Assembly: GCA_036689375.1 (NCBI GenBank)
Contig: CP144808.1
Location: forward strand, 20,927-84,926
DNA from: Candidatus Stammera capleta
GTDB lineage: Bacteria > Pseudomonadota > Gammaproteobacteria > Enterobacterales > Enterobacteriaceae
Direction: 5' to 3'
Length of the DNA stretch: 64,000 nt
Shown here piece by piece: positions 4,685-59,345 of the stretch. The position numbers were made by a program, and so were the translations under genes. Under the pieces are notes generated by a model. The model ran no database searches and had not been told where the DNA came from. It was given only the letters and a program-made list of their open reading frames with translations. Position 1 is the stretch's first letter, and the number at the start of each line of letters is the position of its first letter.

Positions 4685-6239
<1,555 letters not shown>

Positions 6240-6281
6240 TTAAATAATATTTTGCAGGCGTTTATATATTTATTTTATTGT

Positions 6282-6353
6282 GTCCTCTTCGTCTAAAGGA
6301 TAGGACATCGCTCTTTCACGGCGATAACAGGGGTTCGAATCCCCTAGAGGACG
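6282..6353 (+). tRNA. tRNA-Glu (anticodon UUC), rrn spacer tRNA
   Basis: Near-identical to E. coli tRNA-Glu. Anticodon loop CTTTCAC, acceptor GTCCTCT/AGAGGAC plus G. No encoded CCA. Confidence 0.95.
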
Positions 6354-6355
6354 TT

Positions 6356-6372
6356 TTTTGTTCTTTTAAAAT
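6356..6372 (+). promoter_or_regulatory. boxA-like element in the 16S-23S spacer
   Basis: Exact copy of the 17-mer at 4577-4593, located between the spacer tRNA-Glu and 23S as in E. coli rrn operons. Confidence 0.5.
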
Positions 6373-6401
6373 TTTGTATTTAAGACATTTTTAGGTTGCG
6401 A

Positions 6402-9324
<2,923 letters not shown>

Positions 9325-9346
9325 CGCAACCTAAAAATGTTTTATA

Positions 9347-9459
9347 TTTCTGGCGGTAATAGCATAATAGAACCACCTGAAACCATTTCGAACTCAGAAG
9401 TGAAATGTTATAGCGCTGATGGTAGTGTATTTACGCGAGAGTAAGACGCTGCCAGGGAT
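9347..9459 (+). rRNA. rrf: 5S ribosomal RNA (shortened terminal hairpin)
   Basis: CTGGCGG...CCACCTGA..CGAACTCAGAAGTGAAA...GATGGTAGTGT...GCGAGAGTA..CTGCCAGG aligns with E. coli 5S. The GGGGTCTCCCCA hairpin is replaced by ATTTA. Confidence 0.9.
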
Positions 9460-9463
9460 TTAT

Positions 9464-9537
9464 GGTACGGTAGTTCAGTTGGTTAGAATATCAGCCTGTC
9501 ACGCTGGAGGTCACGGGTTCGAGCCCCGTTCGTACCG
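9464..9537 (+). tRNA. tRNA-Asp (anticodon GUC), distal rrn tRNA
   Basis: Anticodon loop CTGTCAC and T-arm GGGTTCGAGCCCC. Similar to E. coli tRNA-Asp. Followed by T11, with no encoded CCA. Confidence 0.95.
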
Positions 9538-9554
9538 TTTTTTTTTTAAAAAAA

Positions 9555-10100
9555 ATGTTATATAATAAAAATAATTTAATTTGAATTGATTTAGAAATGA
9601 CAGGTTTAAATCCTGAAAAAGATAGAATTTTAGAAATTTTTACTTTAGTAACAGATTTTAATTTAAATATTTTAAAAGAAGGACCAAATATTGCTATATA
9701 TCAAAAAAATATATATCTTTCTAATATGAATAAGTGAAATTTAAATATTCATAATAAAACTGGTCTTATAAATAGAGTAAAAAATAGTTTTTTTGATGAA
9801 AAAAAAGCTGAATTTGTTACTATAAAATTTTTAAAAAAATTAGTACCTAAAGGTTGTTCTCCAATATGTGGTAATACAATAGCACAAGATAGAAGATTTT
9901 TATTTAATTATATGCCTGATTTAGAAAGTTATTTTCATTATAGATATATAGATGTTAGTACTATAAAAGAATTAATAATTAGATGAAATCCTTCTATTTT
10001 ATATAATTTTAAAAAGAAAAATAATCATATTGCTTTTTTAGATGTTAAAGAATCTATTAAAGAATTAATTTTTTATAGAAAAAATTTTTTTGTTTTTTAA
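9555..10100 (+). CDS. orn: Oligoribonuclease
   Basis: [23 protein letters not shown]...[28 protein letters not shown] matches Orn. Three in-frame TGA codons lie at conserved Trp positions (the first at 9582-9584). Confidence 0.92.
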
Positions 10101-10110
10101 TTTTCTAATT

Positions 10111-10183
10111 GCGGAAATAGCTCAGTTGGTAGAGTGTAACCTTGCCAAGGTTAAGGTCACGAGTTCGAATCTCGTTTTCCGCT
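10111..10183 (+). tRNA. tRNA-Gly (anticodon GCC)
   Basis: GCGGAAATAGCTCAGTTGGTAGAG...CTTGCCAAGG...TTCGAATCTCGTTTTCCGCT is close to E. coli glyV-type tRNA. No encoded CCA. Confidence 0.95.
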
Positions 10184-10185
10184 TT

Positions 10186-10645
10186 ATGTTTAGTAAAATT
10201 ATATATATAGATAATTTAAAAAAGATGCGTTTTTTATCTGAAAAAATTTCTTATTTTTTAAATAAAGGTAATTTATTATATTTAAGTGGTCCTTTAGGTT
10301 GTGGCAAATCTTCTTTTTGTAATTTTTTGGTTAAAAAATTAGGTTATAAAGGTATTATTAAAAGTCCAACTTATTCTTTAGTAAATATATATAAATTAAA
10401 ATTTTTTGATGTTTTTCATTTTGATTTTTATAGAATATCTTCTTTTGAAGATTTATTTGATATAGATATTTATTCTTATTTTAATGATAATAGTATTTGT
10501 TTAGTTGAATGACCCTGATAAATTTATTAATTATTTACCTAAGCCTACTTTTTATTTAAAATTTAATTATTTAAAATCAGATAAACGTGTAATTATTATA
10601 AATTATAATAGTTTTTTTTATAAAAAATATTTAAATGAATTTTAA
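10186..10645 (+). CDS. tsaE: tRNA t6A ATPase TsaE (YjeE), interrupted by a +1 frameshift at CCC-TGA (10513-10518)
   Basis: P-loop GPLGCGKSS and ...ICLVEW-P match TsaE. Frame 0 stops at TAA 10519-10521. The +1 frame from 10514 stays open to TAA 10643-10645 and continues the TsaE-like sequence. Confidence 0.7.
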
Positions 10646-10695
10646 TAAAAATTTTATTTTTTAAAAAAATTTTATATTTTTTTAGTATAAATATT

Positions 10696-11634
10696 ATGAA
10701 TAATGATATTAAAGTTTTTTGTATATTAGGTCCAACTGGAATTGGTAAAACTTTAATGATTATGGAATTATATAATTTATTACCTTTTCCTATAGAAATA
10801 ATTAGTGTTGATTCTGGATTAATTTATAGAGATATGAATATAGGAACTGCTAAACCTTCTAAGAAAGAATTATTTATTTATCCTCATAAATTAGTTAATA
10901 TTTTAGATCCTAAACAATCATATTCTGTTAGTAATTTTTTTTATGATGTTAAAAAAGAAATATATTGTGCTTTTTTAAATAAAAAAATACCAGTTCTTGT
11001 TGGTGGAACAATGATGTATTATAATGTTTTATTTAATGGATTATATGATATTCCTAGTATAAATAGTAATATTCGTAATTATATTACTAATTTATTTAAT
11101 AAATATGATTGTAAAAGTATTTATAATTTTTTTAAAAAGATAGATTATGATTCTGCTAAAAATATTCATTTTAATGATAAATATAGAATTATTAGAAATT
11201 TAGAAGTTTTTTTTTCTACTAAAAAAAATATGTCTTTTTATAAGAAAAAAAAAGTTTTTATAGAATTTAATATTTATAAAATAATAATTTTATATAAAAA
11301 TAAAAATAAATTATTTTTAAATATAAAAAATAGATTTTTAAATATGTTGAATATTGGTTTTGAAAAAGAAGTTAGAAATTTATATAATAGAAAAGATTTA
11401 AATATTAATATGTCTTCTATGAAACGTATTGGTTATAATCAAATGTGATTATATTTTGATAAAAAAATAAGTTATAAGCAAATGATTAATTTAAGTATAA
11501 AAAATACTAATTATTTAGTAAAAAAACAAATTACTTGATTAAAAAAATGATTAAAATTTTCTAAAGTTATATATTTTTATAATTATAATAGTTGTATAAA
11601 TAAAATTTATAAATTTATTAAAAATAGTATTTAA
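10696..11634 (+). CDS. miaA: tRNA dimethylallyltransferase
   Basis: GPTGIGKT P-loop. GYNQMW and KKQITW-LKKW match MiaA GYRQMW and KRQITWLRGW, with TGA at all three Trp positions. Confidence 0.9.
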
Positions 11635-11646
11635 AAAAGTTATTAA

Positions 11647-12909
11647 ATGTTTAAAAATTTAGTTATTTATGTTTATTATAAAAAAATTAATTTAATAGAA
11701 AAAAATGAATTTATTAAGCTTATTAAATCATCTAATATGTCAATTGATAAATTTATTTATATTCGTATTAGAAAATTTAATAGAAAATATTTTTTTGGTA
11801 TTGGAAAACTAAATGAAATTTTTTTTATTATTAAAAAAAAAAAATATAATCAATTATTAATAAATGTTACTTTAAAAAGTATACAAGAATATAATTTAAA
11901 AAAATTTTTAAATTGTAATCTATTAAATAGAATAAATATTATATTAAATATATTTAAAAAAAGAGCTATTGATAGTTATAGTAAATTACAAGTAGAATTA
12001 GCATATTTAAATTATTTAAGTACTAGATTAGTAAAAAAATGAACTCATTTAGAAAGACAAAAAGGTGGAACAAGATATATTTCTGGTCCAGGAGAAAAAC
12101 AAATTGAAATAGATAGAAGAATAATAAAAAAAAAAATAAATTTTGTTTTAAATAAAATAAATAAAAATATTTTAAATAAAAATCAAGAAAAATTTTTAAG
12201 AAATAAAAATGAAATACCTTTAGTTTCTTTAGTTGGATATACTAATTCAGGTAAATCAACTTTATTTAATTGTCTTACTAATTATAATTTAGAATCAAAG
12301 GATTTTTTTTTTACTACATTAGATACTTATATTAAAAAAATAAATAAATTTAATTTTTTTTATAATGTTTTGATATCAGATACGATAGGTTTTATAAGAA
12401 ATTTACCTTCTGTGATATATGATGCCTTTAAAAGTACATTACAAGAAATTAAAAATTCTGATCTTATTTTACATATTGTAGATATTTCTGACATTTATTT
12501 TAATGATTATATTAATGTTGTAAATTTAATTTTATCTAATATAAATATTAATAATATACCAGTTATTTTAGTTATGAATAAAATAGATAAAATATATGGT
12601 TTAAAAGAAAAAATTGAATTTAATATTAATAATGAACCTATTAAAATATGAATTTCTGCTAAAAATGAATTAGGTATAATATTTATTAAAAAAGTTATTG
12701 ATTTTTATTTATTTAATAAATTTATTAAATATAATTTATTTATACCAGTAAATTTATTTAATATATTTAATAATTTTAAATATAAAAAAAGAATTAGTAG
12801 TGTAAAATGAAATAATTTTAAAAAGTATTATATTTTAGATATTTTTTTAACAAAAAATGAAATTGATTTTTTTTTAAAAAAATATCCTAGAATTATAATT
12901 AATTTATAA
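11647..12909 (+). CDS. hflX: GTPase HflX
   Basis: LVKKW-THLERQKGGTRYISGPGEKQIE, G1 GYTNSGKSTLFN, DTIGF and NKID motifs. Three in-frame TGA codons. Same frame throughout. Confidence 0.88.
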
Positions 12910-12915
12910 ATAATT

Positions 12916-13662
12916 ATGAATATATTTTATGGAATTAATACAGTAAAAAATTTAATAAAGTATAAATGTACTTATATTGAAAAAATTTTTTTATGTTTAA
13001 TGAAAAAAAATATTAAATTAATGAATTTAAAAAAAATAATTTTATATAAAAAAATTAATTTAGTTATTTTTTCACCTGATATTTTTAAAAAAAAATTTAA
13101 TAAGTTAAATGTTTCTCATCAAGGAATTATTGTTTTTGTTAAAAAAAAAATATTTAATTTTAAATTAAATGATTTTTTAAATAAAATAAATAAAAAAAAT
13201 AGTTTTTTTTTAGTATTAAATAATATAATGAATCCTTATAATTTAGGTGCTTGTATAAGAATAGCAGTAGCTGCTGGAATAAATGGAATTATAGTAAGTA
13301 AAAATAATACAGTTTCTATAGAAAATAGTATTGTTCATAAAACATCTTCTGGTTCAATATATAAAATATTTATATTTCAATTTTCTAATATATTAAATAT
13401 AATAAATATATTTAAAAATAAAAAATATTTTATTGTAGGTACAACAATTGAAAATTATAATAATATATTTAATTATAATTTTTCTAAAATTAATTCTTTA
13501 GTATTAGTTTTAGGATCTGAAGATAAAGGTATTAAGAAATCTATTAAAAAAAAATGCGATATATTAATAAATATACCTATAAAAAATATAAATTCTTTAA
13601 ATTTATCTGTTGCATGTGGTATTTCTGTTTTTGAAATATTAAGGCAGAAAAAATTATTTTAA
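12916..13662 (+). CDS. rlmB: 23S rRNA (guanosine-2'-O)-methyltransferase RlmB (SpoU family)
   Basis: 248 aa with SpoU/TrmH motifs (NPYNLGACIRIA, LVLGSEDKGI, IPI...SLNLSVA). Position is syntenic with E. coli. Confidence 0.8.
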   Translation: MNIFYGINTVKNLIKYKCTYIEKIFLCLMKKNIKLMNLKKIILYKKINLVIFSPDIFKKKFNKLNVSHQGIIVFVKKKIFNFKLNDFLNKINKKNSFFLVLNNIMNPYNLGACIRIAVAAGINGIIVSKNNTVSIENSIVHKTSSGSIYKIFIFQFSNILNIINIFKNKKYFIVGTTIENYNNIFNYNFSKINSLVLVLGSEDKGIKKSIKKKCDILINIPIKNINSLNLSVACGISVFEILRQKKLF

Positions 13663-14577
13663 TATTTCTCCTTTTTTAAAAAAATTTTTTTTTGAATTAA
13701 TAAAGTCTATTATATTTAATATTTTTTTATTATTTATTTGTATTTTTTTTATTTCTATAGGATAAGTTATTGTATTTATTATTAATTTTTTTTTATTATA
13801 AGTTAATATTTTTCCTGGTTTATCATTTTTTTTTTTATTTATTATTTTTATTGATCATATAAATATTATTTTTTTTTTATGATAAAAATATGTTTTAGGT
13901 CATAAAAAAAAAGCTTTTATTTTTCTATATATAGTTATAGCATCATTTTTTTTTCATTTTATTAATCCTTCTTTTTTATTTATTTTTTTTGCATATGTAA
14001 TATATTTTTTATTTTGTTTTTTATATATATATTTTTTTAAAAATATATTTAATATTATTTTTTTAATTAATCTTATACTTATTATTTGTATTCTATTTAA
14101 TAATGATAAATAATTATCATTGTTTTTTATTATACATTTTTTTTGATATATTATTTTTCCATTATCTATATATTTATTCATTTTTATAAATGTAACTCCT
14201 GTTTTTTTATCTCCTGATAATATACTTCTTTGTATTGGTGCAGCTCCTTTTCATTTTGGTAATAATGATGCATGTATGTTTATAAATCCATTTTTTGGTA
14301 TATTTATTATTGATTCAGGAATTTTATAACCATATGAAATTAATATTCCTATATCTATATTTTTTTTATTTATTTTATTTTTTATATTTTTAAGATCTTT
14401 AATTGTTTTTGTTTCAAAAATTTTTATTTTATTTTTATTTAATATTTTTTTTATTTTTTTTTTTTTTTTAGTTATTATATTAATAATATTAAATTCTTTA
14501 CAATTTAATAAATATTTTAAGTGATTTATTGAAATTTTATTGTTTCCTATAAATATAATATTTATTTTTTTATTCAT
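13654..14577 (-). CDS. fmt: Methionyl-tRNA formyltransferase
   Basis: [21 protein letters not shown] matches Fmt. Four in-frame TGA (TCA on the plus strand) were checked codon by codon down to TAA at 13654-13656. Lies downstream of def. Confidence 0.9.
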
Positions 14578-56063: not shown

Positions 56064-57221
56064 ATGAAAATTTATTATTTTACTTCTGAATCTGTATCTG
56101 AAGGTCATCCTGATAAAATTGCTGATCAAATATCTGATGCTATATTGGATGCTTATATTGAAAAAGATAAATTTGCTAAAGTTGCTTGTGAAACTTATAT
56201 TAAATCAGATTTAGTTGTTGTTGGTGGAGAAATTAATACTTCTGTATTAATAAATGTAGAAAATATTGTACGTAATACTATATATAATATAGGATATACT
56301 GATATTAAAATGGGGTTAGATGCTTATAAATGTTATATATTAAATATTTTAGGTAAGCAATCTCCTGATATAAGTATTGGTATTAATAAAGGAAATTTTG
56401 TTAATCAAGGAGCTGGTGATCAAGGAATTGTTTTTGGTTATGCTACAAATGAAACATATGTTTATATGCCAGCTCCTATATTTTATGCTCATAATTTGGT
56501 TAAGAGACAATCTTATTTAAGAAAAAAAATAAAAAATTCTTGATTATATCCTGATGCTAAAAGTCAGATAACATTTATTTATAAAAATAATTTAATATTA
56601 GGTATTGATAATGTTGTTTTTTCTACTCAACATAGTAAAGATATATCTTTAGATAAATTAAAAGAATATGTTATGGAAGAAATAATATTTAATGTTTTAC
56701 CTAAAAAATGATTAAGTAATAAAACTAAATATTTTATTAATCCAACTGGTAGATTTATAATAGGTGGTCCTATGGGAGATTGTGGTTTAACAGGAAGAAA
56801 AATAATTGTTGATACATATGGAGGTATGTCTAGACATGGTGGAGGAGCTTTTTCTGGTAAAGATCCTTCTAAAACAGATAGATCTGGAGCTTATATTGCT
56901 AGATATATTGCTAAAAATATTGTTGCTGCTGGTTTGGCAGATAAATGTGAAATACAGATATCCTATGCAATAGGAGTATCTGATCCTGTTTCAGTTACAA
57001 TAAATACGTTTGGAACAGAAAAAATTTATATAAAATATATATATAATGCTTTAAATATTTTTTTTAATTTAAAACCTGGTAATATAGCAAAAACATTAAA
57101 TTTGCTTAGACCTATATATTTTAATACATCTTCTTATGGACATTTTGGTAGAAATGAATTTCCTTGAGAAAAAATTGATAAAATAAATGAATTAATTGAA
57201 TTTAAAAATCATTATTTATAA
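56064..57221 (+). CDS. metK: S-adenosylmethionine synthase
   Basis: [63 protein letters not shown] and [16 protein letters not shown] motifs. Three in-frame TGA. Confidence 0.96.
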
Positions 57222-57802
57222 TTTAATATCATATATTTTGATTTTGGATATAATATATATATTTTTTTTTTTCATATTTTATTTATTTTTTTTTTAAGTT
57301 GTTTATTATTAACAAAATATATATATTTTTTTTTTATTAATTTTAATTTATTTATACATTTTTTAAGTGAATTAAATTTTTTAATTTTTTTTTTATTTTT
57401 AATTATTGTATATATTTTAATATTATTTATATTTTTTAATATTATTATATACATACACATATATATATATGTATATTTTGATTTTAAATAATTTATTACT
57501 ATATTAGGATATGACATTTTTATTATTTTTATTTTTGGATATTTTATTTTAAATGTTTGAGCTATAATTGTAGATATTCTAATTCCTATTAAACTTCCTG
57601 GTTTTTTATTTATTATAATTATATTTATTTTTTTTTTTTTTATTTTATTTTTTTTTATTATTGATTTAATTATTTCTAGTATATATTGGTTATTTTTTTT
57701 TTTAATTATTTTTTTTTTTGTATATATTTTATTTTTATATTTTATTGATACTGAAATTAATTCTGTAGATGTTTCTATAGCTATAATGTTTTTATTTTTC
57801 AT
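57212..57802 (-). CDS. tsaB: tRNA t6A biosynthesis protein TsaB (YeaZ), shortened
   Basis: IAIETSTE and KPGSLIGIRIS match TsaB LAIDTATE and GPGSFTGVRIG. Extended through TGA 57272-57274 (conserved C-terminal Trp) to TAA 57212-57214. Confidence 0.7.
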
Positions 57803-57849
57803 ATATTAATTTTATAATATAATATTGTAAATTATGTTAGTATTTTATA

Positions 57850-58884
57850 ATGAATAGGTTAAATTTATTAAATTTTAATGTAAATGATTTAGAAAAAAAA
57901 ATTTTTTTTAAAAATAAATTTATTTATAATCAAATTATTTATTGAATATATAAAAAATTTTGTTTTAATTTTAAATATATGACTAATATTAGTATAAATA
58001 TTAGAAATATTTTAAATAAAATGTTTAAAATTGATTTACCTAAAGTTGTTAGTTTTAAAAAATCTATTGATAGTTCAATTAAATGATGATTTAATGTTAA
58101 TGATGATATTATAGAGACTGTATATATACCAAGTTTTGGTAGATCTACTTTATGTATTTCAACTCAAGTTGGTTGTGCTATGAAGTGTAAATTTTGTTCT
58201 ACTAGTAAAGGTGAATTTAAAAGAAATTTAAGTGTTGGTGAAATAATAGGTCAAATTTTATTTGTTTGTTATTTTTTATATAAAAATAAAATGAAATGTA
58301 TTACAAATATTGTAATTATGGGTATGGGTGAACCTTTATTAAATTTTTATAATGTTGTAAATTCTGTTAAAATTATGTTAGATAAAAAATTTTTTGGTTT
58401 TTCTAAAAGAAAAATAGTATTATCTACTTCAGGAATTGTTCCTTTTATATATAAATTATATAATTATATTGATATTGTTTTAGTTATTTCATTACATTCA
58501 TCTAATAATAGTATAAGAAATAAAATTATGCCTGTTAATAAAAAATATGATATAATTTCTTTATTGCGAGCGGCTTTTTTTTATGTAAAAAATACTAAAG
58601 CTAGTAAAAATAAAATTAATATTGAATATTTAATGTTAAATAATGTTAATGATGATGTAATTAATGCTTATGAATTATTAAATTTGTTAAAAAATTTTCC
58701 AAGTAAAGTAAATTTGATTCCATTTAATTATATTAATAATTCATGTTTTTCTAGGAGTAGTAAAAAAAAAATGTTATTATTTTTAAATATTTTAAATAAA
58801 AATGGTATTTTTACTTCTATTAGAAATAATAGAGGATTAGATATAAATGCTTCTTGTGGTCAATTGTCAGGTGATTTAAATTAG
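57850..58884 (+). CDS. rlmN: Dual-specificity rRNA/tRNA m2A methyltransferase RlmN (radical SAM)
   Basis: CISTQVGCAMKCKFCST radical-SAM cluster, GMGEPLLN and CGQLSGD motifs. Three in-frame TGA, including the tandem TGA-TGA at 58084-58089. Confidence 0.92.
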
Positions 58885-58913
58885 TTTTATTATAAAATTT
58901 AGTTAAAATTAAT

Positions 58914-59345
58914 ATGAATAATATAAAGTTAGATTCTTTAGGTAAAATTTTAGTTAAAGCTCGCGAATTAATGAATTTAAAAAAAAAAGATATTGCTGAT
59001 AAATTGTGTCTTAAATTAAATGTTATTGATTCTATAGAAAATGATAAAGTTCCTAATAATATATCTTTAGTTTTTTTTTGTGGGTATATTCGTTCTTATG
59101 CTCGTTTAGTTAAAGTTCCTGAAGATAAAATAATTTGTTTTTTAGATAGGTATAAATATAATGATTATTTAGATAAAAAAAATGTAAAAAAATCCTTTTA
59201 TTTTAAAAATAATTGTTATTTTTATATAAAAATTTTTATTTTTATAAAATTATTTTTTTTATTGACTTTAGGATTTTTTTATTTTAAAAATAGAATTATT
59301 AATAATAATAAAGATTTTATTTTTGTAATGGAAAATGATAAATAA
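58914..59345 (+). CDS. rodZ: Cytoskeleton protein RodZ, truncated (HTH domain and one TM helix only)
   Basis: DKLCLKLNVIDSIENDKVP...FFCGYIRSYARLVKVPEDKI matches the RodZ N-terminal domain. One hydrophobic helix, then a stop. rlmN-rodZ synteny is kept. Confidence 0.75.
   Translation: MNNIKLDSLGKILVKARELMNLKKKDIADKLCLKLNVIDSIENDKVPNNISLVFFCGYIRSYARLVKVPEDKIICFLDRYKYNDYLDKKNVKKSFYFKNNCYFYIKIFIFIKLFFLLTLGFFYFKNRIINNNKDFIFVMENDK

Follow-up and report, generated by a model that had tools for sequence, protein, structure and literature searches.

A strain-specific one-base insertion, probably an early step of gene loss, divides tsaE between two reading frames in the beetle symbiont Candidatus Stammera capleta

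In the genome of Candidatus Stammera capleta, a stretch of 64,000 nucleotides (assembly GCA_036689375.1, contig CP144808.1, positions 20,927 to 84,926 of the forward strand; hereafter the window) contains tsaE, a gene of the machinery for N6-threonylcarbamoyladenosine (t6A) synthesis, divided between two reading frames. We interpret this arrangement, with a probability of about 0.65, as a real one-base insertion specific to this strain and as the early stage at which a dispensable gene is lost in the ordinary way; some incidental ribosomal slippage at the site is probable. The insertion would be the first step of reductive gene loss and recent by comparison with the divergence from the closest sister sequenced; slippage may soften the cost of the mutation, and no sign of selection for slippage was seen. 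This reading is preferred because the sole visible lesion hits a gene that has been lost repeatedly in sister lineages. The finding is gene erosion in a reduced symbiont, which is of a known kind, and its message is mostly negative, and clearly so: what looks like a programmed frameshift is a strain-specific insertion in a repeatedly lost gene.

The frame-0 reading of tsaE starts at ATG 10186, three bases past the end of the gene for tRNA-Gly(GCC), and finishes with the codons GAA (10507-10509), TGA (10510-10512), CCC (10513-10515), TGA (10516-10518) and TAA (10519-10521), exactly the layout given in a first-pass annotation made from the sequence alone. Standard decoding as ...Glu-Trp(UGA)-Pro(CCC)-Trp(UGA)-stop(UAA) would release a TsaE of 111 amino acids (aa) under genetic code 4, with the C-terminus ...ICLVEWPW, or of 98 aa with ATG 10225 as the start. 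The shorter form is the product of the gene caller (P0001), and a database look-up of this truncated product returned no entry. In the +1 frame, with T10516 skipped after CCC, the sequence from GAT 10517 onward remains open for 42 codons (DKFINYLPKPTFYLKFNYLKSDKRVIIINYNSFFYKKYLNEF) until TAA 10643-10645, and the joined two-frame product has 152 aa. The annotation had called this open frame notable, which is borne out: off-frame stop codons occur in window genes at 0.117 per codon (64 selected open reading frames, ORFs), only 1.0% of +1-frame positions are open for at least 42 codons, and the open frame is beyond chance. Over the whole window, the off-frame stop density of the 64 ORFs is 0.12-0.13 per codon. 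Separate translation of the 3' part was considered and ruled out, given that ATG, GTG and TTG are missing from its first 21 +1-frame codons, where an internal GTA is all that occurs; transcriptional slippage as a rescue was also ruled out, the run being of three C's only.

A match to the whole TsaE domain needs both frames joined. The frame-0 product covers positions 3-102 of the 128 positions of PF02367 (TsaE) with 96.9 bits, and the fused protein covers positions 3-126 with 106.3 bits (cut-off 26.6); the equivalog model TIGR00150 matches the fused protein at positions 3-130 of 135, with 114.9 bits against a cut-off of 60.1. Moreover, residues 21-138 of the fused protein align without gaps to Haemophilus influenzae YjeE/HI0065 (PDB 1HTW) in an alignment that spans the junction, and with H. 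influenzae and Shewanella sequences the homology likewise continues across it. The proposal that the +1 frame continues the TsaE homology is therefore sound. Frame 0 retains the Walker A sequence GPLGCGKS together with SPTY, HFDFYR and VEW (family motifs GxxGxGK[ST], SPT[FY], HxDxYR and VEW), and the invariant P118 and R134 of TsaE are encoded in the +1-frame part. The truncated 111-aa product misses the final 42 residues, including these two. On the 1HTW alignment the missing residues are predicted to belong to the folded domain, and for this reason the truncated TsaE is probably inactive. The genomic context is also that of tsaE: the gene lies in the order orn-tRNAGly-tsaE-miaA-hflX, and L089 and L091, the largest of the related genomes described below, keep tsaE-amiB-mutL-miaA.

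These translations depend on the reading of UGA. Stammera, a gammaproteobacterial symbiont of tortoise beetles with 15.4% G+C, is reported to use code 4 (PMC10540940), and code 4 (UGA=Trp) is correct for the window: ORFs of at least 80 aa sum to 27,973 aa with table 4 versus 18,923 aa with table 11, and Trp is encoded in the 64 selected ORFs by TGA 131 times and by TGG 21 times (UGA, 86%). The stop codons of these ORFs are TAA (57) and TAG (6), and the G+C content per 4-kb segment of the window ranges from 13 to 36%.

The same locus was fetched from ten other Stammera genomes through a MiaA search, in which about 40 related genomes matched; with the window, 11 Stammera genomes were compared in all. 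In the nearest relative, L081 (CP062308.1, 283,359 bp; 89% protein identity over MiaA+HflX+RlmB, synonymous divergence dS about 0.18), the site reads ATT TGT TTA GTT GAA TGA CCT GAT AAA in one frame, and TsaE is intact with 152 aa. When the DNA of the window is aligned with that of L081, the sole length difference within tsaE is one C at 10513-10515 (CCT becoming CCCT), and the 42 downstream residues are identical at 32 of 42 positions with no insertions or deletions (indels). Six more genomes (L083, L085, L086, L089, L090 and L091) carry a single-frame tsaE of 150-160 aa. The site in the seven relatives' genes is TGA-CCT/CCA/TCT-GAT/AAT, always in a single frame, and the shift site is present in 0 of 7; three further TsaE proteins attributed to Stammera are full length (155-157 aa). 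Because all the other Stammera tsaE examined read in one frame, as the comparison of strains proposed in the annotation has revealed, the frameshift on these alignments is confined to the strain of the window.

Other searches recovered fewer relatives. A contig scan with the fused TsaE found distant relatives only (30-44% identity) and no Stammera, and a single-sequence protein search with TsaE found, among close relatives, only the window's own 98-aa product. A search with a profile built from the TsaE alignment was dominated by Vibrio and Shewanella, with only four Stammera TsaE among the matches listed. The word-indexed protein search missed the TsaE of L081 (83% identity; a called gene of 139 aa on CP062308.1), a genome which the MiaA search found; absence from such a search is thus no evidence against short low-complexity symbiont proteins.

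If the population were mostly CC, the extra C would be a sequencing or consensus error, or a variant within the host. A one-base difference in the length of a homopolymer is the classic form of such an error, and in the collections searched the strain is known from one sample only; a metagenome scan for the CC or the CCC allele found neither. However, the Logan assembly of the raw run SRR23946972 contains a contig (SRR23946972_43114, 8,837 bp) with the same 98-aa TsaE call and 0 mismatches to window positions 7696-14469 (6,774 bases), the CCC within GAATGACCCTGATAA included. The two assemblies come from different software, the C run is just three bases long, and Illumina 2x150 reads, which have a low indel error rate, were the data of the Stammera genome projects (bioRxiv 10.1101/2023.12.12.571295). 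Furthermore, neither the 6.8 kb aligned with L081 nor the 64 selected ORFs show another broken gene. Because the separate Logan assembly is identical and the reads are Illumina 2x150, an artefact of the assembler or of polishing, which the annotation had listed among its options, is unlikely, and we consider it quite improbable that the extra C is an error or a minority allele of any kind.

The gene in which the insertion lies is missing from its syntenic slot in three of the 11 Stammera genomes, the search having been made in the slot only. In L082 (CP043983.1) the slot consists of tRNA-Gly, a spacer of 340 bp and amiB; in L088 (CP043989.1, a genome of 212.7 kb) of tRNA-Asp, tRNA-Gly, 115 bp and miaA, orn being gone; and in L092 (CP043987.1) of tRNA-Gly, 380 bp and mutL. 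Remnants of tsaE sought in the empty slots of L082 and L092 with tblastn and a hidden Markov model (HMM) of Stammera TsaE gave nothing above shuffled controls. Weak collinear tblastn matches in L092 were dropped as a possible remnant, as the HMM did no better there than on shuffled controls. The 115-bp spacer of L088 has a marginal score of 4.7 bits to the TsaE HMM, which 1.5% of shuffles equal or exceed. The Stammera pangenome comprises 125 core clusters of 503, with unidirectional gene loss and highly syntenic chromosomes (bioRxiv 10.1101/2023.12.12.571295), and because of this synteny and direction of change we read an empty slot as a loss.

In a neighbour-joining tree of MiaA+HflX+RlmB with bootstrap, L088 falls inside a clade of 100% bootstrap with L085 and L090, in which tsaE is intact; L092 is in a 96% clade that excludes L082; and the window and L081 are paired at 100%. 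Each of the tsaE-less genomes also keeps a different set of flanking genes. Because of the scattered positions in the tree and the differing retained neighbours, the three losses look like independent events. The annotation had also proposed a very recent insertion (CC to CCC) tolerated through slippage. Its first part agrees with the single C by which L081 differs; tolerance through slippage is plausible and unproven, and dispensability of tsaE in the genus would be a simpler reason for tolerance, because the gene is absent from three sister lineages.

Several observations weigh against the reading of early gene loss. The Logan contig may share its reads with the deposited genome, and the evidence for CCC comes from assembled sequence. 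The absence of tsaE from L082, L088 and L092 is judged from the syntenic slot alone. The gene carries a single lesion, with no further stop or indel downstream, and tsaB is open, a state that fits a gene in use as well as a young pseudogene. When the window is compared with L081, the ratio of non-synonymous to synonymous rates (omega, dN/dS) is 0.39 upstream of the lesion and, from the small counts of 11 non-synonymous and 4 synonymous changes, 0.50 downstream, with 0.24-0.36 in neighbouring genes; the upstream value indicates that tsaE was under purifying selection for most of the divergence between the window and L081. Finally, the insertion falls at an improbable site, on the best-known +1 shifty motif, which hints that selection may have filtered for a lesion that leaks.

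The weight of these last points can be estimated. A stop would arise from about 12% of the substitutions placed at random downstream of the lesion, and the simulated chance that a neutral sequence shows no downstream stop is 0.18-0.59 (0.41 with 7 substitutions, 0.18 with 15). All that the intact downstream frame shows is a lesion younger than most of the divergence from L081, and neither dN/dS nor the simulation of neutral decay has power to distinguish a young pseudogene from a gene still selected. As regards the site, the repaired tsaE allows 1,381 different insertions of one base, and only 1 of them yields an in-frame CCC_UGA. The lesion sits in a 2-base run, although tsaE has longer runs (one T8, four A6 and four T6) and 72 positions or changes at which a substitution could give a nonsense codon; if the indel rate is modelled as rising two- to fourfold per run base, the CC run accounts for 0.015-0.2% of the indel propensity of tsaE. 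As the first lesion of a strictly neutral gene it would be improbable. The 1/1,381 count gives modest support to the idea that the lesion was tolerated because it is leaky. We give this argument little weight: it was the slippery look of the site that drew attention to it, which is a look-elsewhere bias, and three sister lineages tolerate the full loss of tsaE.

That CCC_UGA is a classic +1 slippery site, as the annotation stated, is well founded: the sequence has been described as 'especially +1 shift-prone', with frameshifting that in Escherichia coli is usually 2% or less but rises to 15% in pheL, where Pro follows a hydrophobic residue, and a near-cognate tRNA-Pro on CCC raises frameshifting several-fold (PMC3082878). 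At the tsaE site, peptidyl-tRNA-Pro on CCC could re-pair to CCU with UGA waiting in the A site, and the slip would yield the exact ancestral TsaE sequence, ...VEWPDKF... (junction ICLVEWPDKFINYLPK). A minority of ribosomes would probably slip +1 in this way, so that some TsaE of wild-type sequence would be made. Possible aids to slippage are the Trp before Pro and the near absence of CCC and CCG, as the 421 Pro codons of the window genes are CCT (256), CCA (159), CCC (3) and CCG (3); this rarity suggests that a single tRNA-Pro(UGG) serves all of them. The tsaE site is the sole in-frame CCC_TGA in the window genes. Stammera lacks prfB, which encodes release factor 2 (RF2), and UGA is read by an unchanged tRNA-Trp(CCA) (PMC10540940) whose anticodon stem has the normal 5 bp (PMC13092985), a combination that suggests slow near-cognate decoding of UGA and could likewise favour slippage.

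On this basis tsaE could be a needed gene that is kept functional by spontaneous +1 slippage at CCC_UGA_U: without RF2, the near-cognate tRNA-Trp(CCA) would leave the A site empty, a catalytic ATPase would require little TsaE, and the mutation could have become fixed as one of very few leaky frameshifts. Besides the shift-prone motif and the features of the tRNAs, the restoration of the peptide WPDKF, the rarity of such an insertion and the integrity of both the downstream frame and tsaB fit this explanation. Efficient slippage is doubtful, however, because UGA is the main Trp codon here, so that very slow decoding would be unlikely, and because no Shine-Dalgarno (SD)-like stimulator (GGAGG- or GAGG-like) is found in the 30 nt upstream (AATGATAATAGTATTTGTTTAGTTGAATGA); the anti-SD is retained, the 3' end of the 16S rRNA carrying CACCUCCUUA. 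Tolerance needs no rescue in a genus with three lineages without tsaE, the argument from the improbable site is biased and that from the intact frame lacks statistical power. We consider a leaky working gene possible, on balance unlikely. Somewhat more doubtful is the stronger proposition that CCC_UGA_U is a high-efficiency natural +1 site, with the frameshifted tsaE still working and a single near-cognate tRNA-Pro on CCC; if it were true, the tsaE site would be a natural in vivo reporter of slow decoding of a reassigned UGA.

The annotation had put first a real +1 frameshift. As an evolved, programmed device of the prfB or antizyme type, the shift would set TsaE levels. The motif CCC_UGA_U is right for it, the P-site tRNA can re-pair from CCC_U to CCU, and the frame-0 product ends at once. 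The reading as a programmed shift does not survive the comparison of genomes, as the site is absent from the tsaE of all seven relatives, including the sister at dS about 0.18. Neither an SD-like nor any other stimulator was found, and there is no plausible sensor logic, as no release factor competes at UGA (PMC10540940). An evolved regulatory frameshift is therefore extremely unlikely.

The likeness to known systems is partial. With the pheL type of CCC_UGA the tsaE site shares the peptidyl-tRNA-Pro that can re-pair on CCU, the UGA in the A site, a hydrophobic residue before Pro (Phe in pheL, Trp in tsaE) and a probably incidental character. In E. coli, however, RF2 recognizes UGA as a stop and the frameshifted product runs on beyond the gene; in tsaE, UGA is a sense codon for Trp in an organism reportedly without RF2, and slippage would mend a broken gene. 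With prfB (CUU_UGA_C) the site would have in common a +1 slip on the P-site codon, beside a UGA that may be slowly read, and a 0-frame that ends at once. Most bacteria conserve the prfB site, which carries an SD-like stimulator 3 nt upstream and serves the autoregulation of RF2, but tsaE has none of these three features. In Buchnera and Blochmannia, slippage of transcription on long poly(A) tracts reportedly rescues frameshifted genes (Tamas et al., PNAS 2008). The resemblance is that a small, AT-rich symbiont genome carries a gene intact except for its frameshift, for which infidelity of the expression machinery may give a full-length protein; in those cases the runs are of about 8 or more A/T and the rescue acts at the level of RNA polymerase, whereas tsaE has the run CCC, at which only the ribosome could provide a rescue.

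Reduction of the t6A machinery has a parallel in the tiny Serratia symbiotica genomes, in which tsaE is lost and tsaB, tsaC and tsaD are kept (PMC5013485). There, as in Stammera, tsaE is the expendable t6A member in genome reduction, and tsaB is still in the window; the difference is that tsaE is already gone from S. symbiotica STs, while the strain of the window, with a single lesion, would be at an earlier stage. The partner gene tsaB (yeaZ) is itself highly diverged: only the N-terminal half of TsaB matches TIGR03725 (E 5e-11, 42.9 bits versus a cut-off of 69.3 bits). The remainder of the protein is rich in Lys, Ile and Asn. Erosion in this strain may extend to the entire t6A machinery.

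Under the reading of early gene loss, tsaE in the window is best annotated as a frameshifted, probably decaying gene and not as a case of recoding. Three apparently independent losses and one fresh lesion in 11 genomes, with tsaB persisting, add evidence that TsaE is expendable in reduced genomes. The lesion would also be a natural test of the speed at which UGA is read in a bacterium with a reassigned UGA and an unchanged tRNA-Trp anticodon. The features of the window on which this analysis is based are collected in Table 1.

Table 1. Positions of tsaE, of its lesion and of other features in the window
Feature	Positions	Strand	Basis or remark
orn (oligoribonuclease)	9555..10100	+	translation; PF00929 RNase_T on orthologues in related loci
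tRNA-Gly(GCC)	10111..10183	+	ARAGORN, Rfam
tsaE, frame-0 reading	10186..10521	+	ATG 10186 to premature TAA 10519-10521; translation, Pfam
C run with one extra base	10513..10515	+	CCT, CCA or TCT in relatives; pairwise gap versus L081
CCC_UGA_U shift-prone heptamer	10513..10519	+	arises from the insertion; seen in the sequence
tsaE 3' part, +1 frame	10517..10645	+	42 codons (DKFINYLPKPTFYLKF...KYLNEF) and native stop TAA 10643-10645
miaA	10696..11634	+	downstream neighbour of tsaE; handle for fetching related loci
tsaB (yeaZ), partner of TsaE in t6A synthesis	57212..57805	-	open frame, highly diverged
rlmN	57841-58884		intact, adjoins the RodZ-like ORF
RodZ-like ORF	58896-59345	+	143 aa

The gene order in the window is orn-tRNAGly-tsaE-miaA-hflX-rlmB, and the slot is conserved with optional genes as orn-tRNAGly-tsaE-(amiB)-(mutL)-miaA, tRNA-Gly flanking it in all the related loci checked. 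The order orn/tRNA-Gly...tsaE-amiB-mutL-miaA-hfq-hflX is the one that we take to be general in E. coli and Enterobacterales, and that of the window would be the same minus amiB, mutL and hfq. The slot of L089 and L091 still has both amiB and mutL; L083, L086 and L092 have only mutL, and L082 has only amiB; both are gone from the slot in the window, L081, L085, L088 and L090. The gene orn is missing from L088 and L090. With mutL absent from the locus, the lineage of the window should, by this reasoning, have a higher rate of small indels of the kind found in tsaE. The spacer between tsaE and miaA measures 50 bp in the window (10646-10695) versus 237 bp in L081 (2764-3000), an indel of about 185 bp, which indicates that deletion in the former amiB/mutL space went on after the split of the two strains.

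Upstream of this slot, the ribosomal RNA operon has the order 16S-tRNAGlu-23S-5S-tRNAAsp and is followed directly by orn and tRNA-Gly (window 4685-10183). This junction presumably arose when the end of an operon like the rrnC of E. coli moved beside the orn/glyV neighbourhood; the rRNA-orn/tRNA-Gly junction occurs likewise in L082, L088, L090 and L092. Elsewhere in the window, the RodZ-like ORF matches the 334-position profile NF008109 only with its residues 7-80 and appears to be a truncated cytoskeleton protein.

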